A DNA stretch of 64,000 nt from Isurus oxyrinchus (taxonomy: Eukaryota), in contig JANJGN010000016.1 in NCBI GenBank assembly GCA_026770705.1, forward strand, positions 25,234,001 through 25,298,000, written 5' to 3'. The notes beneath the pieces are model-generated. The model was not told the origin of the DNA, did no database searches, and worked only from the letters and a program-made list of their open reading frames with translations. A program made the translations under genes and the position numbers. This document shows positions 2,061 to 63,400 of this stretch, one piece after another. How positions within the stretch are numbered: position 1 is the stretch's first letter; the number at the start of each line of letters is the position of its first letter.

Positions 2061-3571
2061 GGCCCAGAAATTTGGGGCAGAATCTTCCAGTCCCACCAAC
2101 AGTGGGACACATGGCAGGTGAGGGAACTTAATTTTGTGGGAGGCCAAAAATCATTGGGATGAACTGTTGGAATTCTGTTCTCAGGACTTTAAGGTGGGTT
2201 GAAGGAGTGTCGAGCTTCCTGGCGAGCAAAGTCGGGAAGCTCTTTTGCATTCATTAGCATGTCATGTATGCACATTAAAAGGCCACCTCACAGAATTAAG
2301 TTCCCCTGCCAAATTAAGTTCCCTCAGCAGGAAATTAGAATGATCACCTTTAGGACAGTATATAAGTGGCGTGCACCTGGTAAGTTTCACCTCTTGCATG
2401 ACTTTGAGGTCAGTAGATGTTGATTTTGCCTTCCTGGGGATCGATCATAACTTCACTCATATCGGATACTGGTAGCACAAGCTACGCACATGCTGAAAGC
2501 TGGGTGGGTGGTGCTGGGAGAATGGGGGGGTGCGAGATGTAGGGTGGACAGGATGCAGGTTGCTGGACCTGAGAGGGGGGTGTTGGGAGGGAGGCTGTCC
2601 AGGTGCCCTATAAAAATGGTGCCCAGACCTTCGACCCCATGAAGTAATGCCAGGGATGGTGACTTCCTGCCCAGCCCTGCCGCTAGATTTCTCATGCTCT
2701 GCCCAGATGCATAAGTAATGAGTTGAGCAGCGCAAGATCCCAAGTTTTTAGCCATCTGTCCCCCAGCGAGAATCACTCACACTTCTGCGCCCGCCACTTA
2801 ACTTAGGCTTCAGAGTAGAAGATTCGCCTCCTTGGAGCGGGGAGAGGTTAGCGGGGGGTGGTGGTGGTGGGTGGTGCTCCTGGTTGCAAGTCTTGAGATG
2901 CCCTGATATTGAGCCCATAGTCTGATTTCCATTGAGCTGGTGTCCTGTAGAGAGTAACAGGTAACTTGCTGACCTAGTGGGCTTGATGATCTGGGCTTCC
3001 TGGACACCGGCAGCAGCCCTCAGGTGAGTGAGGAATGGGGAAGTGGGGTGATGGGGGAAGATAAGAGCAGGAGCAGGGGATGCAACATTGCCAGAAAATA
3101 AGGTGCCTGGAGGGAAAGAAGTTGTACCAAATGAGGGTGCGTGGCGTGATGCGGGCAGTGATAGTCAAAGGGAGTGACAGCTATTGGAGGAAAAAGAGCA
3201 GTGGCAGTCTGAGTGTGGGATGTGTGGGAGAGGAGGAAGGAAGGAAGGAAAGGGGAGGGTGGCAGTGATCAGAAGGTGGTGGGGCTGGAAGCAGCTGGCA
3301 GCTTCTTCCAGCTCTGTATTAAGATAATTTTATTTTAAAAGCCTAATCGTTAGCTGCGGCCTAACCAAACTTGCGAAAGGGGCCTCACAGGCATTAGGCC
3401 CTTTATTTGCACTTGCAGAGGACGGACCACCTGTTTCAGTCATGGGCACAGCACATACATTTATTGCTTCCTATCAATATGGCTGGTGGTGAATGTGAAC
3501 ATGCTGCTCGCTTCCTGGCTTCGGAGCTCCTTTTAGTGGCTAGGGAACAGGCACGGTCAAATTTCTAGGCT
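2061..3571. mobile_element. Composite non-autonomous Harbinger-like elements (inner element ~2075-2831)
   Basis: Outer ends GGCCCAGAAATTT / AAATTTCTAGGCT; inner begins GGGCAGAATCTT and ends AAGATTCGCCTCC, flanked by TTG/TTG; inner subterminal sequence resembles 27290-27460. Confidence 0.5.
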
Positions 3572-4620
3572 CTTATGCTCAAATAGATACTGCCACCACT
3601 GTCAGGAGTAACAAGAAGACTTTGAAAAATGCTCTTTTTAAAGGCCAAAGCATTGCCTTGACAACAATCTTTAAGGGTAAAATCTCCATTCTTAAAAATG
3701 CTATTTTCAGAATACAAAGAGTACAATTAATCTTAGGCTTTCTGTCGTTCTGCTTGATATGGTACTATATGATAAATATGACTCACAGCTCAACAATGAA
3801 TTCATCACATGCCAAGCAACACAAATGCTGAGGTGACTTGAGTTCATCAATGCCAATGATTACCTTGTACTCTCTAAAGCAGTAATAGGTTCTCAGTCTA
3901 GTAACTGAGTAATGGTTCATTTGGAAACAATCTTTTCATATAAGCACAAATAGCTTCAAACCACTGTTCCCAATGTTCAATCTCTCAGCTTGCTAACATC
4001 AGTTTGTAAAATCATTAATTCACAATAATTATGTAGCTGAATCTGAACTGTTTAAATTATTCTGTGCTTCTCTCGTCTCTGCACAAGTGCTATTGGATTT
4101 TCAGTGCATTTCAAGTCCAAAATCATTAATGGGGGGAAAATAATTACGTTTCTGCAGATGGCTATAGTCATTTAGCTCTGTGCACTTGCTTCTCATCTTG
4201 TGATCATTTGGGGGAGATGATAATATTCAGAAAATATTGATCTCAATCAAAGCATCTAACAAACCTAAGAAACTCGGGGGCCATGGAGTTAAAATTCAAT
4301 TTCGTCAGGAACATAAAATTGGGTGGTAGCGAACCATCCACCTGTCATATGCCCGCCTGATTTTCATTTCCAAGCAGTGTATATAATAAGTGACCAATCT
4401 GCTACCTCCTACTGAAGTTCAGTTTTACTCCCTAGATTCCTCATGGTTGTAAGATCTTCTCTTATGTCCTACAAACTGGAGGATCTGCAACAACAGACAC
4501 AGGGATATAACAGTTATATAAGTTGGGCACTCCTCCTTCTCCATCACTATCCCAAAACCTTCCCGCAGGAAGATATTTGTCTGCTGACTATTCTTCTCAG
4601 AGGGCAAAAAAAGCAATAAG

Positions 4621-11085: not shown

Positions 11086-11575
11086 TTTGTCAGTGGTAGA
11101 GAATTCCAAAGATTCACAATCTTTTGAGTGAAGAAATTACTTGTCATCTCAGTGTAAAATAGGTGACACATTGTTCTGCAACTATGTCCCTAGTTCTATA
11201 CTCTCCAGCCAAGCGAAATATCCTGCCAACATCTACCGTGCCAAGTCACTTGAGAATTTTATACATTTTGATGAGATTACCTCACATTCTTCTAAACTCT
11301 AAGGATATGTGCCAAGTATATTCAACCTCTGCTCAATCCCCTTATGTGAGGAATCAATCTGGTGAACATTCGCTGCATTCCCTCCAATGTAAGTGTTAGG
11401 GTCTTGATCTTCCAGACAGGCTTCTCATTAGAAAAACTGAACTTTATTTACAGCAGCAGTTACATGCTTCCATCAAGCTCCAGGACTAGAAGAAGAACTC
11501 TCTCACTCTAAGGTTCCCTGCGCTTAGAGCTGATTCGGTCATACTGTCACTACATTCTTTAAAGCTGCAATTACA

Positions 11576-11588
11576 TTCCTCTCCCTTT
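11576..11588 (-). promoter_or_regulatory. Polypurine tract of the LTR element
   Basis: AAAGGGAGAGGAA immediately before TGTAA of the 3' LTR. Confidence 0.85.
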
Positions 11589-14181
11589 AAAATTTTTGTA
11601 CAGTTTGTATTTACAAGAACATCTACCTTCATGACATTACAAATATATACACGGGCATGGAAGTATAAATTCAATCTCTCAGATGGTTTCCTGATCCGGG
11701 TGGAACACTGTAGCTCCACAACTTCCGAATCTCTTACAGAATCCACATTATATGGAACCACAGCAACATCATGTACCTCTTTAGACATAGGCAGTTCAGT
11801 GTTATCTACTCCGACAGAGACATCTGATATGTGTATCCTTGGTTGAACAATTTCAATAGGGACCACAGGCTTTACATTAGTTACAGGTGGAATATCATTT
11901 TGTTGTGGTATCTCCCTTCTTTTCAAATGATCCATGTTTTTGTGGGTGATCTGGCCCTCCATTTCTACATGGTACAACAAGGGTCTGGTCACAGAAACTA
12001 TTACACCAGGTAACCAACTCGATCAAGCACCAAAGTTTCGTACATATACTGCTTCACCTATAGTAAATTCTCGCTCATGACTATGTAAATTATCAGCCGC
12101 TCTTTGATTCCCTTGAGTTTTCTTCACCTTCCCCTCTAAGTTGGTAAGTGCAGGCTTAATCTCGTTAGAAGGTGTCGCTTCATATGGAACTCTGAGGGTG
12201 TTGAACCTGTAGCGGGTGGTTGTTCATTGTCTTTTCTGAACTTTCTTCTATTTTGTCTTCTTCTGTCTACCACAGAGTTTAGTCTCATCCTTCATTTTGA
12301 CTTTACAGTCGGCCAGGCTTCTCTCAGGCGAAATCTCAACTTAATTCCGTTCAGGGGTTGAGCTACCCAGGGCTTCATTACCCACTTGCATTTTGGACAA
12401 TTCCACGACTTTTCCTTCTAAGGCCTCTTTTGTTTCACTCAGCTGATTCTTCAGCTCTTCTGTCTCCTTCTTGTATCTGTTGGCTTCCTCCTGGAACCTT
12501 GAATATTGTTGCATCTTCTCTGCCAGCTGGTTCTTCAGTTTGTTCAGAGTGACCGTTAAATTCTTTCTGCTTCTCTTTGTAATTTTTCAGAGGTACAAAC
12601 TTTGACCTGAAGGATTCTTGTAGTTTTTGAAGATCTTTCAGTTGGTTTTCCTTTTCTTTGAAAAGCTCACTCGCTTCATCTTGAATTCTGTAATTCAGCA
12701 GAATCTCCTTGAGTCTCTTCTGCTGTTCTTCCATGCTGCTGGTTCAGTCTTCGTTTCCTCAGGTTGCTGAATGGCTACACACGCCTTTTGCATCCTGTTA
12801 AGGTCCTTTGGCTCTCCAGGCTCTTTCTGAAATACCTTGTCTTGTTCCTTTCCCAACTCAAGAACTCTTCCTGCTTCCTTTTGAAATCTCACTAGCCAAT
12901 GGATGATAATTTCCCTCAACCAATTACGACCTACAAGGCTTGGTCCTTCGCCTTCTACCACTATCATTGGGAGTTGTGCTGTTTGATGCTTATAATAAAC
13001 AGGTATAGTTGTAATACCCTTCACTTGGATAGCTTTGCCAGTACAAGTTTTCAATTTGGCTGAAGTTTGCTCCAAATTCAATTGTTGAGTACCTTCGTTT
13101 AAATATGTCTCCCACTGCAGTAGTTGAAGCACCAGTGTCCACTTCCATCATTTAAAGGTTTTCCATTTACCTGCAGAGTAACAATGATTGGTTCCGTCTT
13201 CCCTATTTTTACATTAAATAGGGAGTAAATATCAAAATTGGTGGTTTCTGGTTCTTCCACATTATGTACTTCAATTAACTTGGTTTGCTGCCTGGGAGTC
13301 TATCTCGATCTTGCTTTACAATCCTTCAGTATCTGCCCTCTTTTATGGCAAAAATACCACTCCATCTCTTTAAAACGGCAATTTTCAAGAGCATGATTGC
13401 TTCCACATCAGTAACAATTCATTTTCAAATTTGCTGCTGAGCTGTTTCCTGTATTTCATTCAAATTTTCGGGTTGCGGGGACTGTCTCCTACTTTGCGGT
13501 GGAGTACTGGCTTTTCGCATCACTTCCAGCTGCCTGTCCCTGCCCCAATTGGAAAACGGCACCATTTTGTGCACCCTGCACATCCATTGGCGCTTTTCAT
13601 CATGGACGCTATTTCCAGTGCTTTTGTTAAATTGAGGTTTACTTCAGCTAATAATCATCATTGAACAGCATCATCTTGCGCATCATGTACCAAACAATCC
13701 CTGAGCAACTTAGGGTTGCTCTGAAATTACAGTGTTCAGTCAGTTGTTTCAATTTTGCCACGTATGTAAGCAATGGTCTCCCCTGGGGCTCTAATCCTTG
13801 AATTAAACCTGAACCTCTGCATGGTGACTGATGGTCTGGGTTGAAAGTGTCCCTTAACGAGGTCTATCAATTCACCGAAGGTCTTTGAATCGGGGGCATG
13901 CGCGGCTGTTAAACTTCAGGTTAAATTATAGGTTTTACTCCCGCAAATTGCTTAGGAGAATTGCTCTCCTGTTTTCAGCTCCCATTATTTTGTCTGCCCG
14001 GAAATAGAACCTGAGACTTTCTACATATCGAGACCAATCCTCTGTGGACGGTTCGAAGGGGTCAATCCTGCCAAAATGTGGCATATCTGAGTACATCTCA
14101 GATGAGAGTACATCTTCCTTTTCTTCTGTTTAAACAAGAAACTCACAGTAGCTGGGCAAGGGGCAATCCCGGACCCGATTT

Positions 14182-14194
14182 ATCCTCTTCGCCA
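14182..14194 (-). promoter_or_regulatory. Primer-binding site, tRNA-Ser(GCT)-like
   Basis: TGGCGAAGAGGAT just inside the 5' LTR; 12/13 match to TGGCGACGAGGAT, the complement of the vertebrate tRNA-Ser(GCT) 3' end (recalled, not searched). Confidence 0.75.
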
Positions 14195-16255
14195 GTTTGT
14201 AATGGACATGATTTTCCAGACTGGTTTCTTATTAGAAACATAGAACTTTGTTTACAGGCTGAAGCAGCAGTTACATACTTCCATCAAGCTCTACAACTAG
14301 AAGGAGAACTCCCACTCTAAGGTTCCCAGCGCTTAGAGCTGATTTGTTCACACTGTCATGTGATACTATACAACACAATAAGTCTTAAAGCAACAGTCAC
14401 TACATTCCTTAAAGCTACAATTATTACAGTAAGCATATCTTTCCTTGGGTAAAGAAAGTAAAATGAACACAGTAATTCTGTAGTGGCCTCACCAAGTCCC
14501 GATAATAACTACAGTAAGACTTACTTATTCCATAAGAAAATGGGAAGAATATTTGTTCCATCATAGTTTCTCTATGACCTAGAAATGAATTTCATGGTGC
14601 TGTCTTTCATGCCCATGGGCGTCTGAAATATTTCTGACTCCAACTTCAAGTGCTCTTGTAGTTACATAGAACCAGGTGTTAGGGCACTAACATATGTAAA
14701 TCAGGGGCATAACACCTGTTTTAGGAACCCTTTCTAAAATTGCTACATGTTGGCTATCATGTACCTCTTACAAAGCCTTTATCTGTACTGCCTTTATTTG
14801 AAGTGGAATAAAGATGGATGAATGGCAGCCAAGGCTTATGAAACACATAAATCAACCAGAACAAGTGCAACAAAGCTCATGTTTCAACCACAATGATCAA
14901 ACATGCCATTGATATCTTGAAGTAGTGCTTCAATGTCTGGGCTGATCAAGGACAGTCTTACAGAACAATTTCTCACCCTAAGGATTTCCTGAATAATTGT
15001 CAATTGCTGTCTGCTCCATAAGTTTGCCCTGAAATGTAGCTCCATGATTGGCAAAATGGCAAAATTAAGAGGGTGAAAATGCCAATGAGAAATTATCAGC
15101 AATACTAGCAATGCAGCGAGAAAGACAGATGAGCTTTACTTTAACTTTAGATGCCTTCCAAATAGTGCCTCAGCTGCACCATATCTTTAAGAAGCAAATT
15201 CACATATGCTAAATAACTGTGTCCAAACCAGCTTGTCCCACACTTTCATATTTGGTTCTTCAAGTGTTCATTATCCAGTGCTGGCTTCCTGCTATAGTGC
15301 AATCAAATGACAAATAAATATGCAACACAGCACTGAAGTCAAGTGCAAGACATGTATTTTCATTATCATACCAGCGCGAGCATTGGCTGCTTGAATTGGC
15401 ACATGTTGGTGAATGTGCTTTGTTTCAGATGTGTGACACTTAACCTGCCACTCCTTCTAAATGAGTCCCTAGTGAAAGAAGTAAGTGTATTCGCTGGCTG
15501 CAGGATTTAAATGGCAGTCTGCTGGGAGTCCTCTGGCTGTGCACTGCGAGGGCCGGGGGTGTGAGTCAACCCCATCCAAGTCTGTGGTGACTGAGTGCTA
15601 TTGCCAGCTTGAGGAGTCTTTCTCCCCTACTTGATGTGCCAGTTGCTTCTTGGATGAGGGCAACAATTTTCAAAGGGGCAGTGTGTCTGCTCAGAGTCCT
15701 TAGAACTCCACAGCTGTGAAATAAGCTTCTTGTTCTGTGCAACGCCGAATTCTACAGCAGTTATGCAGATTAAAATACAGGTATTTTCTTCATGGTGCTG
15801 TTTCGGGTGCTTAATTATTTAGATTTAGTGCACAGTTGACATGGAGGATTATTTTTATTAGGGGGCATGGTGTTATAATTAAACCTTCAATCTGAAAACA
15901 GCAAAATCAACAGCTTGCATTTATATAGCTTCTTTAACATCCCAAATTGCTACTAGGAGGAAAATCAAACAAAAAATTACACAGGTCGTCCCAGATTTGC
16001 ACAAAGTGTGGTAGTAGGCGGGAAAAACAATGTTTTACCTGCCAGCTGCAATGGTGGCTTCTCACGCCGTATCATCCCAATCCCACCACATTAATTATGC
16101 ATTCCCAGGAAACACGCCACCTCAATGGTGGGCAGGTACTCATTTGCCCGCCACAACATCACCCTGCCACTTCATCACACCGGGCACCATGTTTAATGTG
16201 CAGCCGCGTACACACCTTTCAGCGCTTCCAGCCTATGACTGCTGCACGGAAGACT

Positions 16256-17886
16256 TGGCTCCAAAAGGAAAAAGACTACAGCCCCCAGGTTCAATGTCGC
16301 ATCCCCTGAGCGCCTTTTGGATGCAGTGGAGGCGCGCCATGATGTCCTCTACCCCCGCTCTGGCTGCAGGATTGGAAGCAACATCACCAATCTGGCTTGG
16401 GAGGCAATGGCAGCGGTGGTTAGGGCCAACGCCCTGCCAACGAGGACCGCCACCCAGCACCATGAGAGGATGAATGATCTCCTTCGTTCTGCCAGGGTAA
16501 GTCACTCTTCTCATCACCCTCAACTCACACACTCACAAACCCATCACACATCCACAGGGCCCTCACTCACTGCCAGTTCAAGGGACATCACCATTGACTC
16601 TCTCACACACACCTTCATTGTCCTCACTCTGTCCATGGGACCACTCATCACCTACGCATGACAGGCATACTTATCAGCTGGCCTGGCAGGCATCCTGCTT
16701 ACACTCTTTCCATTTCTATTCATGCAGGACAAGCTGGCACACAAGAGGGAGAGGTCACAGACTGGTGGAGGAATGCTTGAAATTAAGGTCCTCACTGTCT
16801 TTGAAAACAGAGCCATCCAGATGGCCGGCAAGGATCTGGACCATTCCTGTGCTGACGGTGAGATCCAGCAGTAAAACACTCATCAGACAACCATGCTGTG
16901 AGTAATGAGTCCTGTTTCACAAGCCTCTGCTATGCACTAATGATCTCTCCTTGCTTTCACAGGCACATCAGAGGAATATGAAGGCACCCTCCTTGAAGCC
17001 CCGTCACACAGCTCACCCACACCCTCCAACAGAGCAGAGGCACACATCTCGGTGGGACCTAGCTTTAGAGTAGCCTCGAGATCACAATCTGGTGAGTACA
17101 TCGCACTTTCTGATCCACACCAGGTGGAGGCAGGAACTTCCCAGGTCCCCTGCACATGGAGGACTGCTGGAGGCCAGAAATTTGCTAGGTCTGAGTCAGA
17201 CGATGAGCCTCTAGACTCAGTCATGCCTCAGTTGCTGGAGCTGCAAAGGCAAGCTCGGCAACATCAGGAAGGGATGTCCGCTGCACTTCTCAGAATGCAA
17301 GGCACGATGGACGAGTCTGTCCAGCCTTAGGCTGAGGGAAGAGCACCGGCACGTCAACATGCCAGCACACTGAGATCAACACTGGTAGGATGATGGCCAC
17401 CGGGGAGACCTTGGTCCAGGAAGTCGCTCCTGCATGGCTGCATGGGCTGGGCTCCATCGCTGATGCCATAGTTGGCCTCCAATAGTGTATACGTGAGAGG
17501 GGTGCTGGCAGCTCAATCTCACTCCAGTTTCCCTTTCTCCTCAAGGAGTCAGTCTGGGGCCCTCTGGCACCCATAGGGAGGAGGATCAGCAGGTGCACAT
17601 ACCCTGGGTCCATCAACCAGGTAACTCCGGGAGTGTCTGGCCCATCCGAATCCCCTCTTCTTGTGACCCCAGCATCTCCAGCTCCACAGGTAGAGGAGGG
17701 TGCCACTGCCACACAGCAGGACCCCGAAAGCAGGACAGAGCCCTTAGGGACTCAGCCCTCCAGAGGAAGCCTGTCAAGTTCATCACAGACAGGGCATAGC
17801 AGTCAGCAGGCTGCCTCCACCTCCGCTGTGGATGTCTGGGGAGCACCAAAATGTAGGGGCTGGTTAGGAATGTCAAGAAGATGTAG
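16256..17886 (+). pseudogene. Harbinger Myb/SANT-like DNA-binding gene (outer element), 3 exons, frameshifted
   Basis: LLDAVEARHDVLYP..AWEAMAAVV..RMNDLLRSAR|GTAAGT (exon ends 16496); exon 2 from 16728 DKLAHKRERSQTGGG; exon 3 from 16963; AATAAA at 17941. Confidence 0.8.
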
Positions 17887-19189
17887 TTGCACAGCCTGGA
17901 CACGGGCGTTAATCACTTGCACATACTGTTCACTATAATCAATAAACTCCCATGAATGTCTCCCTGCCTATGGCTCCTTGTTCTGATGAGCAGTATTATG
18001 ATCACTCAGGTGTGAAACCTTTCTGCACGAGATAAAGACTGGCGTCTCAGTCCACGGCCTCTTCCCTGTGCTCCGTGCAGCCACCGGACCAAAGTGATGG
18101 TCCAGCCTCACACTCCCTGGGAATATTACTGATACCTGCACCTCCACGGTGCTTGTCATTGCTGCCAGAATGTAGTGGGCAGGCGCCATAGAGTTCCGTC
18201 ATTCTTTCTGTGTGCTCTCAGCACCTTTAAGGTAGGATTGGCCCCCATCTCTTCAGCATCTGTGACCAGTGACACTGTGCTCCTGAAGGGATCAGGTGCT
18301 AAAGGTGGGACAAAGGATTAGATGCTTTTAAAGTTTTACAGCTGCGTTTCCATGATATGACCCTGATCACAGAGCGCAAGCGAACTGCCCTCTGACAGGA
18401 GTCAGACATTCTCAGAGGCTATGTAAAGATCTATGGGGCATCCTCACTGCATGTCAACATCATCCTCCTGCAGTGGAGTGACAATTTGGGGCTCCACTGC
18501 GTCTCGATGAAAGGAGCATTATCACAGAGATTACTCACTCTGCCATAAGCCAGACTGGAGTCAAATTTTCACAGATGTAATGTGAGGATCTATGTGGTCA
18601 CCTCGGGATCTATGTGGTCACCTCACAGCATGTCATCATCATCCTCCACAAATCTAGCAGCTATGAGGTGACCACCTGAACGCCATGCCAGTGAAGTAGA
18701 TGGCACCCTGAACCAGTAGGAAACCTGGGGGAGAATTTTCCTCATGTTGGGCGGGCAGTGCGGGAGTGGGTACAGATCAGATTGCCGCCCACGACCGGGT
18801 CCGCACTGCCATTTTATGTGGGCTGGCCAATTAAGGCCCACCCAGCGCAGTTCACGACTCCTGTGCATAGCACATCCAGCTTTTGTGGAGCAGAAGGAAA
18901 GTGAACCAAGCTGATTCCTTTAGCATACTTTGCTTTGGAATATTATTATTACATCTTTATGAAGTTTTCAGCTTTAGCTATGAAGATCACAATCAGTATA
19001 TCTTTCAGAAGTGAGGTGGAAAGGGTGCTCCAAGGAGTGGCTGAGTCCAATGGTGACCTGGCAGCCTGTTTAAATGAAGGTTTGGCAGCCTTGGAAAGGC
19101 TGCTTACAGAGGGGCAATGTGCATCATGCAAGTCCGGAGGGTAGGCCATCGGGGCAGGCCAGGCCAGAGGGTAGGGCAGTGGGGCAGTG

Positions 19190-19434
19190 TGCCCCTCATT
19201 TTTCCGACAAGCTGCCCTGCTGGAGTAGGTGGTAGCACAGCGGAAGGTCCTTCTTCCGAGGGATAGGAGGCGGAGGCCTCCCCACCTGACTAAACGTGTG
19301 TGGGAGGAGGTGGCCGCGAGTGTTAGCCCCCATGATGTGATGTGGTATACATGGCTCCAGTGCCGCAAAAGATTCAACGATCCCCTGCGCTCGGGAAGGG
19401 TGGGTACCATGTTGCCTCAAATCACTTAATGCAG

Positions 19435-19467
<33 letters not shown>

Positions 19468-21260
19468 ACCCCCAACTCCTCCCCTCCCCTCCCTCCGGCA
19501 ACTCTGAGTACAGTAACAGCAGTGAATCCCTCACAGCATGTATCCCTCGCTGGGCATACCAGCAGAGAATGCCCTTGCCCAGTTCACCCTAAGAAGGTTG
19601 AGCTAGGATAGGGTCTGCATCCGCAGCACGTCTGACACTGACACCCAGAGTATAGAATGGGGTTGAAAGTCAAGGGTCTGCACCTAGGCAGAGTGCTGGA
19701 ACTGGGAAGCATGTCAAAGTCAGGGTGCTAACATGCTGGGAGGGGAGCTTCTACCAATCCATCTGCTGGTCTTTGCGCTCCACATGCTTGTGCCTCCTTT
19801 TTTAGCAAAGTTACACCTTGTGGTGCCACATGTGAAGGAAGCAGCATTTGGGCAATGGTGGGGGGGTCAGCCCTGGTTTCTTTGTGTGAGTGTGCGGCAG
19901 CTGCATGGTGACAAGGAACTGGAGTCCTGCAATGTCCCACTCTGGCTGGGTTGGCAGGGATGCGATGGGAATTCAGGTACAGGCTGGACTAATCAATGCT
20001 CCTCTCTCCTTTTCAGGAGAAGACTGTGCACAATGCCTCTGAACGAATGCAGACTGGCGGAGGACAGGCCCAGTTGGCCATCCTAACACCTTACAAGCAA
20101 CAGACCATGGATCTGGAGAGGTGCCGTGCCCCCAGGTCCACTGGTGGTGGTAAGGCTGGGGTGCCACGGGGAGGTATGTTTGGCGAGCACTCAGGTCACC
20201 ATGTGTGTCACAGAAGCCATGGCACTGCTGAATGCTCAGTGATTGAAGTTAGCAACATGGGTTTGCCATTGATTATAGAAGGATGAACACATAATAATCT
20301 GGGGGATCGGCATGCAAGTTGACATTGTCAGCACTGTAACTAATCAAATGTCCTTTTTCTTCCTTTCAGCATCACTGGAGCAGGGCCAGGAGGAGGAGGC
20401 AGAGGGCCCACCTCTCACTCCTGAAGCCCCCAAGCAAATCCACTCACCAGCGTCACACCATCTCAGCCAGGCAGGCACCAGCGCAGATACTAGTACCTCA
20501 GTGGGAAGTAGATATTCAGCTAGTGTCCCAGGGCATGGCAGTGAGGGCACTTCACACTCGCTTGAGGTACGGGTAGAAACAGAGTGCCCAGGGCACCGCC
20601 AGTCGGAAGACTGCTGGGAAGCAGGTACATGCTCGGTTGGTGGCTGATGATGTGTCTCTGGAGTGGTCCATGAGGCAGCAAATGCTGGAATTGGATCAGG
20701 ATACGCGGAACGATCTGGCAGAGATACATGAAACTAAGCATGGCATGGTGCCAGTGCTTGAGGAGTCCACGCAGAGCATCTCCGATGCAATGAGCCTCAT
20801 GGCTGAGCGCCATGCTTCCTCCATGGAGAGAGTGGTGACTCACGTGGAGAGGTTCCTCCAGGAGAACAATCAGGGCCTCCTGGGGTTGCGCTCAGACCTG
20901 CAAGCCCTCACAGCGGCATTGACCTCAGCTGGTCAACGACCTCACGTCGGCGCAGCAGCTGCCTGTCGTCTACGCGGGCTCCTCTCAGGGTGGTCCAGAT
21001 GAGGGCAGCAGCTCCTCCGCCCCTCTGCCAGTGATTGTGGCATCCGATGAGGCTGCAGCAACTGGGGAGAAGCCAGCTGTGGAACTGGCCGCTCCCTCCC
21101 AGGCGGGGCCATCAAATACTCCGTGGGCCAGAGGACATACACCAAGGTCATCGAGGCCAACAGGACAGCACAGTGAGCAGGCTGTCTCAGATGCCAGTGC
21201 CAGCGAGGGGACAGCAACTAGACGTAGCACTCATAAGCGTAAATTTAAGGCACTTTATAG
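19190..21260 (+). pseudogene. Harbinger Myb/SANT-like gene (inner element), 3 exons, disrupted
   Basis: VWEEVAASV..TWLQCRKRFNDPLRSGR|GT (19399); exon 2 20017-20173 EKTVHNASERMQTGGG; exon 3 from 20370, with a coiled-coil region and basic RRSTHKRKFK end; start approximate. Confidence 0.85.
19435..19467. repeat. Poly-C homopolymer (~33 nt)
   Basis: Direct C run inside intron 1 of the inner Myb gene. Confidence 0.95.
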
Positions 21261-21584
21261 GCACACCACGGCTTTCTCACTGGTGCTTTTACGTTGGCCA
21301 TAGTACTTACTGGAGTACTTGGTATGATGTTCTACACTGTTTTTGTTTTGCTTTATGAAGTTACATTTGTTCACTCAATAAATTTTGACATGTTGCCATG
21401 TCTCAGGATGATTCCTTCCTTCTGCAAGTGGATGGGAACCCATGTTGTTATGAGTGAGTTGTTTGACATTGAGCTTTATTGAGAAGGGCCTTAGTTAATG
21501 TTAGTATCTAGGCTGATTTAGCACTCAGGTATCGAGTATGGAGCCTGCAGCCCTGGCATGTGTTGAAGGTCCATCCATGGTGAG

Positions 21585-22790
21585 CTAGCTGAAGGTTCTT
21601 TGGATTAAAGCCTCCCAGGTGTCCCTGCGTCCCTGGAGTATGACCGGGTCAGCGTCTACCGCCTCAGCGTTCTCCTGTGTGTGCTCATCCTCGGACTCAC
21701 TGCCGGACTCATCGTGTGCATCAGGAGCAACTGCGTCTACGTCTTCCTCATCACCCCTTTCCAGCGCCAGGTTGTGGAGAGCGCAGCATGCAACCAATAT
21801 CAGCGACATACGATCTGGGGGGTACTGGAGTGCACCCCCTGAGTGGTCCAGGCATCAGAAGCGCATCTTGAGAAAACCAACGGTTCTCTCCACGCAGCCC
21901 TTGTGGAGGCGTGGCTCCTGTTGTACCACTGCTCAGCTTCTGTTCTTGGATGATGGAGAGACATCATCAGCCACCTTCTGAGGGGATAGCCCTTGTCACC
22001 CAGCAGCCATCCACCCAGCCGGGCTGGAGCACTGAACAGTCTCAGCACCTGGGAGTGTCTGAGTATGTAAGCTCATGGGAGCTGCCTAGGTACCTTGCAC
22101 AGACTTGCAGAATCTGCATCCTGTGATCACACACTATCTGCACCTTCATGGAGTGGAAGCCCTACCTGTTGATGAAGGCACCGGGCTCATCTGCTCATAG
22201 CCACGTGTGTACAGTTTATAGCACCCTGGATGCGGGGGAAGCCAGCAATGGCTACAAAGCCTCTGGCTCGCTCTGTCTGGCTGGCATCATCCCAGAGGTA
22301 GTGGATGAAAGTCAATGCACACCTGAATACAGCGTCTGTCACCAGCTTGACACAATTGTGGACAGCTGATTGGGAGACACCTCAGAGATCATCCACTGAC
22401 CCCTGAAAAGAGCCAGAGGCATGGATGTTGAGGGCAGCTGTGACTTTCAGAGCCACTGGCATGGGGTGTCCACCCACACAATTTGCAGAGATCTCAGGGC
22501 CTGTCATCTGACAGATATAGTTGACTGTCTCTCTTGAGGGATGGAGCCTCCTTCGGCATTGGACCTCAGGCATACTGAGGTAGCTGCTTCGCCACCTGTA
22601 TACCCTGGCAGCAGGATAGTGGCATCTTCTGCAGCCCCTTCCACCTTGCACTTCCCGTTGGCCCTGTGTCCCTTGTGCCTGCGCCTCTCCTCCCACTTGG
22701 AGGCTGAATGTGGACTCATGGCCTCCTCCCCCTTCTGATCCTCTCTTCCTCCTTAGAGGAAGTGCCTCCAGTGGAGAGCATAACGCCCAT
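21585..22790 (-). pseudogene. HARBI1-type DDE transposase of the inner Harbinger, frameshifted
   Basis: HPMPVALKVTAALNIHASGSFQ, GFPRIQGAINCTHV (first Asp is Asn), [41 protein letters not shown]. Confidence 0.93.
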
Positions 22791-23288
22791 TCCCAGGCTA
22801 AGTGAAAGCTTCCTGAAAGCTGCAGGCCCCTGAAATGATCTTTATTGTAGAGTCCTGACCAAGGCTTTTACTCCTGTCCAAGCAGCTGGCATGAGTTTTG
22901 AACTATTCCTGCTCACACAGACTAGTGTAAGTAACTTTCACACTTAAATACCAGAAAGGTCACATTCGCGACCCCACTCACCCCTCTTTCCCACCCGTGG
23001 ATGAGGTTTATACAAATGTCTCCTACCCGCCTGCCCGTTGTGCCCGTGAGATGTCCTGAAGATCGCATGGGCTGTGAAAAATCGAATTCAGTTGCTGCCT
23101 CAAGGGCCTTAACTGGCCCGTTAATTGATGGCGGGCGCGCCTCCGAACTTATAGCATGCACGCGCCTTCCCAAATATCGCGATGGCACGTGGTGATGTCG
23201 GGTCGCTCACCCGATGTCACCATGCGTCATTTTACGTGTGGGCGTGCGGGGCCCGCCCCCATTCACCAATGGGAAAATTCTGCCCCTG

Positions 23289-23822
23289 AGATCTGGGAAA
23301 ATCCAGTCGTTCTTGCATCCTGGCTCTCCTGATTCAGGGCGAAATACACAAATTTGCGTGCTCTCATGAAGATGGCAGCCGTGATTTCATGGATGCATTT
23401 GTGGGCGGAGGCTTGTGATATCCCACAGAGGTCACCTTTGGAGCCCTGAAAGGAGCCACTGGTGTAAAAATTGAGCGCTGTGGTCATTTTCACAGCCACT
23501 GGCAGTGGATGCTCTCCTTGGCGCCAAATCCTGCAGTAGCTGGCAGATGTGACCAACCAGTTCTCTAGAAATACGCAGTCTTTGGTTCTCAGTCATCTGC
23601 AGGAATGAAAGGGGGTCTCTATAGAATCCAGGATCTAGCTCGGCGCTGACCAGCAATAGCTCGCTTTGGCTTTTCAGCGGCATGTGCGAGAGAGCCAGCC
23701 GCCCCTTCTTCCTGAAGATGCTGCTCCTCACTCTGCCCAGCCAGGAGCCTCAGTTGTTCTCTCCTCCATTGTCTTCGCTCTCCGTACACCACGAGGCAAA
23801 CAGCTAGTTCACCAGGGTCCAT
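23289..23822 (-). pseudogene. Outer Harbinger HARBI1-type transposase, N-terminal half (continues at 18727-~18620)
   Basis: HPLPVAVKMTTALNFYTSGSFQGSKGDLCGISQASAHKCI..GFSQISG; resumes beyond the inner element as GFLLVQGAIYFTGMAFR, then jumps to the C-terminal IAARFVEDDDDM, so the DDE core is deleted. Confidence 0.85.
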
Positions 23823-24969
23823 GCACCTGATATACTCCTCCTGCAGGGTGAGAGAGAGAGACGTTTGGGTTAGCTTGGGTATTCTAAGAACCACTCTTGG
23901 TTAAATCTGAAGGCCCCTTAATGCATCCTGGAGAGCGCTGGCCACCACTTGGATGGCCAGAGATTAGTGCGCTGCATGGCTGCCCAAAACCCTTCCCTCC
24001 TCTGCCCCACTCCACGTGATCGATTGATGGCAGCTTTGCCCATTGGACTGCATGCTGTGCTCTCAGCTCAAGTGCAGGCATTCTCCTAACCCATACTGCA
24101 AGGCTGCACTGCTAGCTTGAACCATGGAGGAGGCTGGCCTAAACTGGGATGATGACATTGCAAGGGTCTGCGAGCGCCTCCACCAGTGACTGCCCCATGG
24201 CCAGCAATAGCAAGGAGATTGTCCAGTCATCCAACTATTCTGCAGTCCAATAAAACGCTCATTATTTTGCAGTCTGTGCTCGAGGGGTGAAAAGCTCTGG
24301 AGGACTTGTTGGCACTTTCATGCCTCTGTGCTGCTTGACTGAGCAGAGATGCTAGAGGCCCGACTCCACGCATGTTAATATGGCTGCATCTAAGCTGTCT
24401 CAGCTGCGGAGGAATGGCCATTGTATACAAGGTTTCCCTAATGCATGGCCGCTTCCCTTCCCCCCACCCCGCACGTGCTTGTTCACTACCTACAACTGCA
24501 GGGCAGCCCATACCCCCCTCCCCTAAGTCACCTCAACCGCAGAGCAGTCCTTAACCCCTCCCCTAAGTCGCCTCAGCTGCAAGGGCAGCACTTGCCCCCA
24601 CCGGCCCCCTGCACCAAGCCACCTCAACCTCAAAGCTCAACAGGCAACCCTCATGAGTGCTGCGTAATGTTACTGTGCACTCACCTCTGAGTTCCCCTCA
24701 AAGTGCAGCTCACCAAGTGCACACCTGATATGTTTGTTGTGAAACGACAAATGGGTGGATGATCCAGCGAGAGGGCGATGATTCCTGCGGGCTGGCCATA
24801 TAATGATATGCAGATTTATTACAACGCGGTTCTCGATGTCCAATGGGCTGGGCAGACAATTGCGAACTGGTGTCACGACGTTGTGAAACCGATTTTTGGC
24901 CTCCTCGCCGTATTGTCCGCTCACACCGCCGATTACGCCCGATGCCAGCAGGCACGGAAAATGCCACCC

Positions 24970-44136: not shown

Positions 44137-46583
44137 GGGCAGAATTTTGCCCTTGGTGGGCGGGCGGGCCCCACTGGCTCGGCGGGGGTCGGGCAACCGA
44201 CTCCCGCCGCCGAAATGGGCCTGCCGTCATTTTGAGTGGGCGGGCCTTGCGGCCTGCCCGACAGCGCTTCCTGTGCGGGGGGAGAAAGGGAATCCGCAGC
44301 TGTCAAAGTGTGCTCTTTCTGAGGCAAAGTGCTGTCTCAGGGAGTTTACTGACAGGTAAGAAAAGTCAAAAAATAGAGAACTGTTAAAATTATTAACATG
44401 TGCCCCTCATGTGACAATTTCACATGAGATGGGACATGTTAATGAGAAACACACAAAGTTTATTAAATTTTTAAAAAACGGACATGAAACTTCTTCCTCG
44501 AACAGAGGCCCGAACAATCCCCATCCACCACTACTCTCCTCCGTCTGGCTGAACTTGTTCTCACACTGAACAATTTCTCCTTTAACTTCTCTCACTTCCT
44601 CCAAATAAAAGATGTGGCTATGGGTACCCACATGGGCCCCAGCTATGCCTGTCTCTTTATGGGGTATGTGGAACATTCCTTATTCCAGTCCTATTCCAGC
44701 CCCCTCCCACAATTCTTTCTCCGGTACATCGACGATTACTTCGGTGCTGCTTCATGCTCTTGTCGGGACCTCGAAAAATTTATTAATTTTGCTTCCAATC
44801 TCCACCCCTCCATCATTTTCACATGGTCCATCTCTGACACTTCCCTTCCCTTCCGTGACCTCTCTGTCTCAATTTCTGGTGATAGACTGTCCCCCAATAT
44901 CCATTACAAGCCTACCGACTCCCACAGCTACCTCGACTACAGGTCCTCACACCCCGCTTCCTGTAAGGACTCCATTTCATTCTCCCAGTTCCTTCGCCTC
45001 ACTCGCATCTGTTCTGATGATGCTACCTTCAAAAACAGTTCCTCTGACATGTCCTCCTTCTTCCTTAACCGAGGTTTTCTACCTACGGTCATTGACAGGG
45101 CCCTCAACAGTGTCCGGCCCATCTCCCACGCATCTGCCCTCATGCCTTCTCCTCCCTCCTAGAAACATGATAGGGTCCCCCTTTTCCTCACTTATCACCC
45201 CACCAGCCTCCGCATTTAAAGGATCATCCTCCATCATTTCCGCCAACTCCAGCCTGACGCCACCACCAAAGACATCTTCCCTTCACCTCCCATTCTGTAG
45301 GGATCGTTCCCTCCGGGACACCCTGGTCCACTCCTCCATCACCTCCTACTCCTCAACCCCCACCTACGCCACCTCCCCCTGCAAACGCAAAAGATGCAAC
45401 AACTGCCCTTCACTTCATCTCTCTTCACCGTCCAAGGACCCAAACACTCCTTTCAAGTGAAGCAGCCATTCACTTGCATTTCCCCTAACTTAGTCTACTG
45501 CATTCGTTGCTCCCAATGCGGTCTCCTCTACATTGGAGAGACCAAACGTAAACTGGGCGACCGCTTTGCAGAACACCTGCGATCTGTCCGCAAGAAAGAG
45601 CCAAACCTCCCTGTCGCTTGCCATTTTAACACTCCACCCTGCTCTCTTGCCCACATGTCTGTCCTTGGCTTGCTGCATTGTTCCAGTGAAGCTCAACGCA
45701 AACTGGAGGAACAACACCTCATCTTCCGACTAGGCACTTTACAGCCTTCTGGACTGAAAATTGAATTCAACAACTTTAGATCTTGAACTCCCTCCTCCAT
45801 CCCCACCCCCTTTCTGTTTCTTTCCCCCTTCCTTTTGTTTTTTCCAATTATTTATATAGATTTTTCTTTTCCCACCTATTTCCATTATTTCTATATCTAT
45901 ACCTTTTATGCCCTGTTAGTCTTTCCACCCCACCCCCACTAGAGCTGTACGTTGTGTGTCCTGCCATCCATTCTTAATTAGCACATTCGTTTAGATAATA
46001 TCACCACCTTCAACACCTCTTTGTTCTTTTGTCTGTGACATCTTTTGATGATCTGCTCCTATCACTGCTTGCTTGTCCCTACAACCACACCCCCCCCACT
46101 TCTCTCCCCCCCCACCCCCCCCCAACCTTAAACCAGCTTATATTTTACCCCTCTCCTAATTTTACTCAGTTCTGTTGAAGGATCATGAGGACTCGAAACG
46201 TCAACTTTTTTCTTCTCCGCCGATGCTGCCAGACCTGCTGAGTTTTTCCAGGTAATTCTGTTTTTGTTTCTGATATGAAACTTCATCCCACCAGTGGATG
46301 AAGGTTTCATGAATAATCTGGAGTCCGCTGGGGCTTCTGGCCTGCCCGCCAGCCTTAAGCTTGGACGGGCAAGGGTCTTTAACAAGGTTAATTAGCCTGT
46401 CAATAGCCTTAATTGGCCATTGACAGGTCGACGGGCAAACAGCTGATTTCGCTGCTTGCCCGTCTTCCTAAAGATTTAAATGGACTGGGATGACGTCGGG
46501 GGTTCCTCCTGATGTCATCCCATGTCATTTTCCCCTTGGCGAGGAGGCCCCGCCCCCAAATCGCTGACGGGAAAATCCTGCTG
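44137..46583. mobile_element. ~680-bp Harbinger MITE interrupted by Penelope copy 1
   Basis: GGGCAGAATTTT / AAAATCCTGCTG ends, perfect CAT TSD. Confidence 0.88.
44494..46270 (+). mobile_element. Penelope-like retroelement copy 1 (5'-truncated RT + GIY-YIG, disrupted)
   Basis: AMGTHMGPSYACLFM, LRYIDD, HYKPTDSHSYL; GIY-YIG NLVYCIRCSQCGLLYIGET (45394..45786); flanking duplication GACATGAAACTTC / GATATGAAACTTC. Confidence 0.95.
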
Positions 46584-60440: not shown

Positions 60441-63400
60441 GGGCTGGATTTTCGGCCCCCACTGGGATCAGAGGTATGAGGGAACTTAAAATAGCCTTGG
60501 CAGCTGACATGCCGGTTTCCTGGTTCCCAAACAAAAACAGAATTACCTGGAAAAACTCAGCAGGTCTGGCAGCATCGGCGGAGAAGAAAAGAGTTGACGT
60601 TTCGAGTCCTCATGACCCTTCGACAGAATTTGAGTTCGAGTCCAAAAAAGAGTTGAAATATAAGCTGGTTCAAGGTGTATTGGGGTGGAGGGGGGGGGGG
60701 GGCGCGGAGAGAGAGAGAGAAGTGGAGGGGGTGTGTGGTTGTAGGGACAAACAAGCAGTGATAGAAGCAGATCATCAAAAGATGTCAACAACAATAGAAC
60801 AAAAGAACACATAGGTGTTAAAGTTGGTGATATTATCTAAACGAATGTGCTAATTAAGAATGGACGGTAGGGCACTCAAGGTATAGCTCTAGTGGGGGTG
60901 GGGAGAGCATAAAAGATTTTAAGATATTTAAAACTAATGGAAATAGGTGGGAAAAGAAAAATCTATATAATTTATTGGGAAAAAAAGGAAGGGGGAAAAA
61001 GAAAGGGGGTGGGGATGGGGGAGGGAGCTCACGACCTAAAGTTGTTGAATTCAATATTCAGTCTGGAAAGCTGTAAAGTGCCTAGTCGGAAGATGAGGTG
61101 TTGTTCCTCCAGTTTGCGTTGGGCTTCACTGGAACAATGCAGCAAGCCAAGGACAGACATGTGGGCAAGAGAGCAGGGTGGAGTGTTAAAATGGCAAGCG
61201 ATAGGGAGGTTTGGGTCATTCTTGCGGACAGACCACAGGTGTTCTGCAAAGCGGTCGCCCAGTTTACGTTTGGTCTCTCCAATGTAGAGGAGACCACATT
61301 GGGAGCAACGAATGCAGTAGACTAAGTTGGGGGAAATGCAAGTGAAATGCTGCTTCACTTGAAAGGAGTGTTTGGGCCCTTGGACAGTGAGGAGAGAGGA
61401 AGTGAAGGGGCAGGTGTTGCATCTTTTGCGTGGGCATGGGGTGGTGCCGTAGGAGGGGGTTGAGGAGTAGGGGGTGATGGAGGAGTGTCCCGGAGAGAGC
61501 GATCCCTACGGAATGCCGATAGGGGGGGTGAAGGGAAGATGTGTTTGGTGGTGGCATCATGCTGGAGTTGGCGGAAATGGCGGAGGATGATCCTTTGAAT
61601 GCGGAGGCTGGTGGGGTGATAAGTGAGGACAAGGGGGACCCTATATTGTTTCTGGGAGGGAGGAGAAGGCGTGAGGGCAGATGCGTGGGAGATGGGCCGG
61701 ACACGGTTGAGGGCTCTGTCAACGACTGTGGGTGGAAAACCTCGGTTAAGGAAGAAGGAAGACATGTCAGAGGAACTGTTTTTGAAGGTGGCATCATCGG
61801 AACAGATGCGACGGAGGCGAAGGAACTGAGAGAAAGGGATGGAGTCCTTACAGGAAGCGGGGTGTGAGGAGCTGTAGTCGAGGTAGCTGTGGGAGTCGGT
61901 GGGTTTGTAATGGATATTGGTGGACAGTCTATCACCAGAGATTGAGACAGAGAGGTCAAGGAAGGGAAGGGAAGTGTCAGAGATGGACCACGTGAAAATG
62001 ATGGAGGGGTGGAGATTGGTAGCCAAATTAATAAATTTTTCCAAGTCCCGACGAGAGCGTGAAGTGGCACCGAAGTAATCATCGATGTACCGGAGAAACA
62101 GTTGTGGAAGGGGGCCGGAGTAGGACTGGAACAAAGAATGTTCCACATACCCCATAAAGAGACAGGCATAGCTGGGGCCCATGCGGGTACCCATAGCCAC
62201 ACCTTTTATTTGGAGGAAGTGAGAGGAGTTGAAGGAGAAATTGTTCAGTGTGAGAACAAGTTCAGCCAGACGGAGGAGAGTAGTGGTGGATGGGGATTGT
62301 TCGGGCCTCTGTTCGAGGAAGAAGCTAAGGGCCCTCAGACCATCCTGGTGGGGGATGGAGGTGTACAGGGATTGGACGTCCATGGTGAAGAGGAAGCGGT
62401 TGGGGCCAGGGAACTGGAAATTGTTGATGTGACGTAAGGTGTCAGAGGAATCACGGATGTAGGTGGGAAGGGACTGCACAAGTGGAGAGAGAAGGGAGTC
62501 AAGATAACGAGAAATGAGTTCTGTGGGGCAGGAGCAAGCTGAGACGATCGGTCTACCGGGACAGTTCTGTTTGTGGATTTTGGGTAGGAGATAGAAGCGG
62601 GCCGTCCGAGGTTGGGCGACTATCAGGTTGGAAGCTGTGGGAGGAAGATCCCCAGAGGAGATGAGGTCAGTGACAGTCCTGGAAACAATGGCTTGATGTT
62701 CAGTGGTGGGGTCATGGTCCAGGGAGAGGTAGGAGGAAGTGTCTGCGAGTTGACGCTCAGCCTCCGCGAGGTAGAAGTCAGTGCGCTAGACAACAACAGC
62801 ACCACCCTTGTCAGCGGGTTTGATGACAATGTCAGGGTTGGACCTGAGAGAATGGAGTGCAGTAAGTTCAGAGGGAGACAGGTTCCCATCCTGGGCCATT
62901 TTCTTGGAGGCAGAATAGAGGGTGTCAGGGTGACCGGCCGATACTAGGCAGGCAGCCAATCAGGCTCAATAAGAGCTTAATTGAAGCCAATTAAAGGATG
63001 TCGACTGGAATTTTCCAGCCAGTTTCCCACACCAACAGAGTCAGGTTTAGGGCCTGGAGGTGGGCACTTGTCATCAGGCCAGGGGCCAGTATTCCATGCA
63101 GACCTAGGAACCCTTTTTTCCCTGCCTGGGTACAGGAGCAGCTGCCATGTAGGGTGTAGAATGTAGAGGGGTCCTTTCCCACTAACCCCCCAACCCTTAC
63201 ACTGGTGGCCTGGCTGCTGAGTCCATTTTTCAGTTAATGATTTTAATGAGTTGGAGAGAAGGCAGCTCCATGTTGAAGCACCCTCGCTCTTCCATTTCAG
63301 CCTGCTTCCTCTCTCAAGCTGGAAGGCTTCTGGTTGGCCCACTGCCCCTTAATTGGATGGAGAACCTGAATTCAGGCCAATTAAGGGGATGCGCCCTTGA

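Follow-up and report, generated by a model that had tools for sequence, protein, structure and literature searches.

A Gypsy-type element in the genome of the shark Isurus oxyrinchus raises the question of how a long coiled coil came to occupy the place where related retrotransposons carry their polymerase. The element lies at 11394-14428 (3035 nt, minus strand) of the window, by which we mean the whole 64,000-nt stretch of DNA that was analysed. Its ends are TG...CA, and it is flanked on both sides by the 5-bp target site duplication (TSD) GTAAG (11389-11393 and 14429-14433, plus strand). Read along the minus strand, on which all of its features lie, it opens with a 231-nt 5' LTR (14198-14428; TG...CA), which has 14% mismatches against the 3' LTR, followed immediately by a predicted primer binding site (PBS)-like motif (14194-14183). 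The gag remnant (13198-14096) has stops and frameshifts in the window copy, but is open in the sister copies L124 and L125; it is common to the pol-bearing parents described below and co-linear with loci L197-L208. Next comes an aspartic protease with a DTG motif (12907-13197), broken in the window copy and recognised as gag-asp_proteas on sister copies at E=2e-5 to 8e-4, which is below the curated cut-off. Behind it stand a diverged protease-RT linker from an older parent (12794-12906), which moves together with the cassette, then the coiled-coil insert and a further tail (12232-12344). An integrase C-terminal tail (11663-12224) restarts at the parents' RTTPHTTTG motif, with a stop codon at the junction, and a polypurine tract (PPT, 11588-11576) and a 182-nt 3' LTR, shortened against the 5' LTR by two internal deletions (11394-11575), complete the element. 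All the parts that the initial annotation had named for a non-autonomous Gypsy element (LTRs, PBS, PPT and a 5-bp TSD) were therefore located, and with parents that have full pol, the window element is a decayed non-autonomous derivative of a Gypsy-type LTR retrotransposon. Exact TSDs at aligned LTR ends were also found in L130 and in the parent L200 by a crude search, in which most other copies were inexact. Pfam gave no match for the integrase tail, and a PDB sequence search with gag-protease gave none either.

The two coiled-coil peptides first reported at this locus are present on the minus strand at 12734-12555 and 12553-12344, with a change of frame at ~12554. This break is absent from some copies, as L004, L006 and L019 are open across it. 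Pfam returned only sub-threshold generic coiled-coil matches for both window peptides. The open frame of L004 (224 aa) matched five proteins at E<=1e-3 among 2326 candidates: four are named UACA (catshark, horn shark, sawfish and sawshark), and the fifth is unnamed with the same ankyrin domain layout. Identity to these proteins is 45-61%, the best match having E 6e-37 and 59-61% identity over 111 residues. The host proteins are ~81% identical to both carcharhiniform and horn-shark orthologues, as would fit a galeomorph, possibly lamniform, shark. Within the same genome, host UACA has a 911-codon open exon (~2.7 kb) on contig C25, and comparison of the window with this locus gave two exon pieces, at 76% DNA identity over 355 nt and 71% over 111 nt. 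Piece 1 (12447-12793, ~117 codons, containing the frameshift of the window copy) corresponds to 3004-3356 of the host exon L021, and piece 2 (12345-12455) to 3798-3908. The two lie 450 nt apart in the host and are joined at a 9-nt overlap, so that the UACA part (12345-12793) has a 450-nt in-frame deletion. The proposal of a UACA/RAI14-like coil therefore stands for UACA, in protein and host-locus DNA alike, and falls for RAI14 and ANKRD24, as neither name occurs among the L004 protein matches; nor were the best matches to Gypsy pol or env or to other transposon proteins. On these sequence matches, the insert is best described as derived from the coiled-coil exon of host UACA, and not as a chance similarity.

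The same arrangement recurs across the genome, in what we call family A. A 25-mer at the 5' junction was found in 70 places at <=2 mismatches, with 0 for the reversed control. This filter was passed by 7 of 40 UACA-bearing loci picked via protease or integrase tail, which would put family A at roughly a few hundred copies by extrapolation. All 20 insert-bearing loci that were fetched match the window element's other parts, mostly co-linearly, and the top protease matches have UACA directly behind the protease in 30 of 30 cases, these loci being top search matches and not a random sample. A single frame of gag, protease, linker and UACA runs for 508 aa in L124 and 466 aa in L125, the longest open frames seen, in copies whose LTRs are diverged. 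Every copy examined is decayed, and LTR divergence is 0.08-0.175 in A, 0.095-0.14 in the parents and 0.11-0.23 in a second family, B (one doubtful 0.04 pair aside). Six near-identical A copies (L106, L107, L110, L117, L118 and L120) are clustered on C26, and L136 on C23 is a 97%-identical tandem duplication; these are likely to be segmental duplications rather than transpositions.

The parents were recovered with the integrase-tail peptide as query. Besides the window it had 29 matches, ten with UACA, 16 with an integrase core and three with neither, while none of the top 30 Integrase_H2C2 loci match the element. Twelve UACA-free loci were fetched whole, and most share the LTR, gag and protease to ~12907, where the DNA match of most parents to the window element stops at the protease end, and again the tail from ~12224. 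Between these flanks they carry ~2 kb of RT-RNase H-integrase, giving the order gag-protease-RT-RNase H-integrase, with domains read from translations. As the parents have ~2 kb of pol where A has UACA, the insert replaces pol and is not a later insertion. This agrees with the initial annotation, in which a coiled coil had taken the place of the RT-RNase H-integrase core, leaving the integrase C-terminal tail, in an element that transposed as a unit: the junction is multi-copy.

Family B was found via the UACA protein search as loci with longer UACA pieces (host 2359-3909). It has its own LTRs and a different gag remnant, and matches the window element only in UACA and ~113 nt downstream. There are at least 150 matches to the B piece (170 matches for a ninein-TPR query, from 150 candidates scored). 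One B frame of 196 aa fuses ninein 1175-1250 (63% identity) to TPR 188-306 (65%), the host genes being on contigs C19 and C16, respectively. When B loci were tested against upstream TPR exons, 20 of 20 crossed at least two exon-exon joints within single alignments, and four crossed all six. Because the host has AG/GT-flanked introns of 0.8-8.5 kb at those joints, family B captured spliced TPR mRNA. The UACA and ninein pieces each fall within one large exon, which limits the evidence of splicing to TPR. Most internal joints in B have alignment overlaps of ~1-19 nt, and the shared deletion has one of 9 nt; at the 5' joint of family A no more than a few letters are shared, the linker there being diverged from that of extant parents. 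Among the junctions common to at least two B copies, phase 0 is the commonest class in 15 of 16 distinct ones by our own grouping of bins; one junction lacks a modal phase, and another is in frame in just two of four copies.

B has further pieces. Between its gag remnant and UACA runs an in-frame stretch that resembles a coiled coil (L036:5504-6043, minus strand; also L048 and L038), and a spacer of ~86 nt separates UACA from ninein. A search for the source of either found none; they are possibly fourth and fifth donor genes. In the permuted copies L036, L037, L042 and L044, UACA 3831-3909 and the spacer precede UACA 2424-3770, unlike in other B copies. L082, L083 and L084 carry another, upstream ninein piece (host 3736-4069) with no UACA or TPR match, and are perhaps a further capturing family.

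The link between the two families is provided by subfamily B2, which has the same 450-nt deletion as A, with the same 9-nt joint, and the same ~113-nt non-UACA tail, which in B is the spacer before the ninein piece. In a tree of the 353-nt piece (L093 left out), A is one clade (100/100), and A together with nine late-B2 copies forms a branch (100/98) that excludes the host, B1 and three early-B2 copies. The higher LTR divergence of B than of A fits B being older. Judged by these shared features, A most likely received its UACA piece second-hand from B, and the capture from mRNA would have happened in B. An A-type copy with a shorter 5' junction (L051, C23:36.26 Mb) lies ~4 kb from a B2 copy.

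We consider it probable that A is a gag-protease fused in frame to a UACA piece that replaces the pol core, the piece having been relayed from B by RT template switching. In the first step B would have packaged host mRNAs, stitched at short overlaps into one frame behind its gag remnant; RNA capture is established for TPR and presumed for UACA and ninein. In-frame deletions, including that of 450 nt, then trimmed the B cassette, as its nested structural variants show. The shared junctions and the tree point to a third step, in which a B2 RNA may have recombined with an unrelated pol-bearing Gypsy RNA and replaced most of its pol. Backbone trees show that the cassette next changed backbones, ending up on at least three diverged ones, presumably by recombination with co-packaged helpers that give RT and integrase in trans. 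Lastly, purifying selection may have kept the first ~117 codons, with the coil working in a Gag-protease-coil polyprotein.

Re-mounting shows when backbone and cassette are compared. Family A has three subfamilies in its tree (L099 dropped as a duplicate, L005 and L115 for coverage), and net divergence between them is ~0.15-0.25 in LTR, gag and protease versus 0.004-0.06 in the linker and piece 1. In both the 5' and the 3' backbone trees (L206 not included; four and three rows dropped for coverage), two A subfamilies, including that of the window, interleave with different pol-bearing parents, and monophyly of A is rejected in both backbones (p ~1e-61 and 1e-90). The UACA cassette thus occurs on three or more diverged backbones, and two of these intermingle with relatives that have pol. 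Following the template-switch model of PMC5131818, we infer that repeated recombination of co-packaged A and helper RNAs is the simplest reading. As A subfamilies interleave with parents, the strong third-position excess in gag and protease reflects the helpers' history and not that of A.

The coil can be judged by its own codons. Within groups, divergence of piece 1 is even across codon positions (in A, 0.137/0.107/0.146), as expected under neutral decay after insertion. Net A-vs-B1 divergence of the same piece is 0.049/0.068/0.200 (P=0.001), with third-position excess also for A against early B2 (P=0.002) and late B2 (P=0.016), where P values throughout are codon bootstraps that ignore tree structure, on samples of top matches (L002 and L051b left out). 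Net divergence between A and B1, early B2 or late B2 is 2.4-3.9 times higher at third codon positions; when sites are sorted by host base, all four bases have their largest value at the third position, and net dN/dS is 0.19-0.31 versus 0.5-0.65 within groups. Late B2 against B1 has a non-significant excess (P=0.15), and the near-star tree of the TPR pieces makes a selection test on them unfeasible.

The main competitor to selection keeps the same history and makes the coil a passenger, and we give this a substantial chance, though one somewhat short of even. Here an open frame alone was needed (for RNA stability or cis-preference of Gag), or nothing was, and the elements spread via LTRs, PBS, PPT and packaging signals. 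The decay of all examined copies is consistent with this, as are the lack of third-position excess in piece 2 (net 0.30/0.19/0.26) and in the spacer (net 0.39/0.19/0.10; L002, L019 and L051b not included, L053 as frame reference) and the weak UACA signal between A subfamilies (P=0.07, 0.32 and 0.23; L124, the frame reference, and five of the six C26 near-copies left out). The in-frame null is also high, since 7-9-nt microhomologies between these genes are 55-90% in frame anyway, and 15 phase-0 junctions in a row have a chance of 0.0005-0.035 under per-junction nulls of 0.6-0.8. A passenger does not readily explain, however, why first and second positions of piece 1 moved by 0.03-0.07 versus 0.19-0.31 in the adjoining piece 2 along the same path, as an open frame alone does not conserve amino acids. 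We lean slightly towards the view that purifying selection for a functional role of the coil preserved the first ~117 codons. Maize Bs1 is a likely precedent for such selection on captured sequence, as a 1994 title by Jin and Bennetzen reportedly speaks of nonrandom mutation of its captured fragment.

If selected, the coil would most plausibly serve in dimerising Gag-protease where RT used to sit. A two-copy model gave a symmetric coiled-coil interface with a score of 0.39, against 0.03 for the best of three controls (pLDDT >=77; contact agreement >=88%); among solved structures, 21 of 30 homodimers (7 of 16 for animal homodimers) attain this score mark and 0 of 23 monomers do. The result may reflect memorised coiled coils. 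Engineered leucine zippers have reportedly been placed behind the C-terminus of retroviral protease, where RT normally helps to dimerise Gag-Pol (PMC3291649, PMC11998509). They are a possible model for the coil of A, but are laboratory constructs from another element class, and a drop in particle yield is announced in the title of PMC3291649, so that the analogy could point in either direction.

Capture of UACA mRNA by the Gypsy element directly, independent of B, was the version of the initial annotation, and we now regard it as improbable. What holds of that version is RNA-level capture from a host coiled-coil gene. The deletion might conceivably have arisen twice through its 9-nt overlap, and a separate capture, from a different period or species, would likewise yield third-position excess, through selection on the host gene. 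However, A carries the non-UACA tail of B right after host position 3909, which largely refutes direct capture, and to the grouping of A with late B2 is added an AU test (L002 and L051b left out) that rejects A with the host, at the modest value of p=0.039. Capture at the DNA level, by gene conversion or by insertion with its own TSD, is less probable still: the UACA pieces lie within one 2.7-kb exon, which makes a DNA source formally possible, but ~2 kb of pol is replaced and not interrupted, the same junction is in 70 places, every host piece has the orientation of the element and the co-captured TPR is spliced. No UACA intron sequence was found beside the insert in 20 loci (L036-L055), where host-locus matches stayed within the exon.

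The mechanism proposed here belongs to a class that is already known. Maize Bs1 is an LTR element that joins pieces of three unlinked host genes, with shared switch points, secondary retroposition and 1-5 copies, according to PMC5131818 and PMC13317346. The shark families resemble it in having three donor genes within an LTR element, shared junctions and secondary retrotransposition. Unlike Bs1 as described there, A junctions number 70 or more and B-piece matches 150 or more, all three donors are long coiled-coil proteins, the host is a vertebrate, and the cassette seems to have passed into another LTR family, unrelated to the first, and onto several backbones. LTR-mediated retroposition in metazoans (zebrafish, chicken, mouse) produces partial mRNAs that replace internal ORFs, short joint overlaps, multi-gene chimeras and non-autonomous re-transposition (Tan et al., 2016, PMC5131818). 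The shark families share with those retrocopies the absence of introns (TPR in B) and secondary retrotransposition with shared junctions; the cases considered here from that paper are young and low-copy, whereas the shark families add large-scale amplification and, probably, between-family relay, with possible master-lineage selection. Rotifer retroelements exchange extra acquired ORFs among diverse elements (PMC5408684), but these are separate ORF3 genes with remote homologs in complete elements, while the shark piece is traceable to the host and fused to protease in place of pol. A literature search found no description of these shark families, and an entry in Repbase, Dfam or supplements may exist. 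Set beside the literature found, the shark case stands out by its scale, by three coiled-coil donors sharing one frame, by the likely transfer to an unrelated family, by repeated backbone swaps and by the selection signal on a coil fused to protease.

Together, the families give a vertebrate, high-copy and stepwise record of gene capture by LTR elements in one genome, with three donors, nested deletions, a family jump and backbone swaps. More tentatively, shark Gypsy elements may on repeated occasions have picked out long coiled coils in particular (UACA, ninein and TPR) from host mRNAs. They would have assembled a Gag-coil fusion in one frame and handed on a dimerisation module of ~117 UACA residues, maintained by selection, from one LTR family to an unrelated one, where it stood in for RT in its structural role. 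This would be a host-to-transposon exaptation, the reverse of gag domestication, by which defective elements came to compete with their helpers in abundance. Should selection on the coil be borne out, a structural domain of the host was turned to use by a transposon, and one can then test why three separate coiled coils were collected.

The families also extend beyond this genome. In the basking shark, the RefSeq proteins XP_078401457 and XP_078395215 correspond to an A-type and a B2-type piece, and contigs of two organisms carry family A, one of them spanning the left flank of the window element and its LTR; families A and B are thus common to several sharks. A contig set presumed to be RNA-derived gave only short matches to the element. 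These repeats seed false gene models, and may confuse the annotation of UACA, NIN and TPR, as well as read mapping, in sharks. Two 'uncharacterized proteins' of the basking shark in RefSeq, LOC144678955 and LOC144682709, are likely to be repeat-derived gene models, with matches to B2 and A copies at 69-72%.

Elsewhere in the window, an RT-encoding element with a 476-aa open frame is present as an inverted pair of copies with 89% identity, at 60529-62785 (minus strand) and 44488-46269 (plus strand); from its motifs we take it to be Penelope-like. The 8-kb stretch at 16001-24000 has ~54% GC, against ~40% around it.
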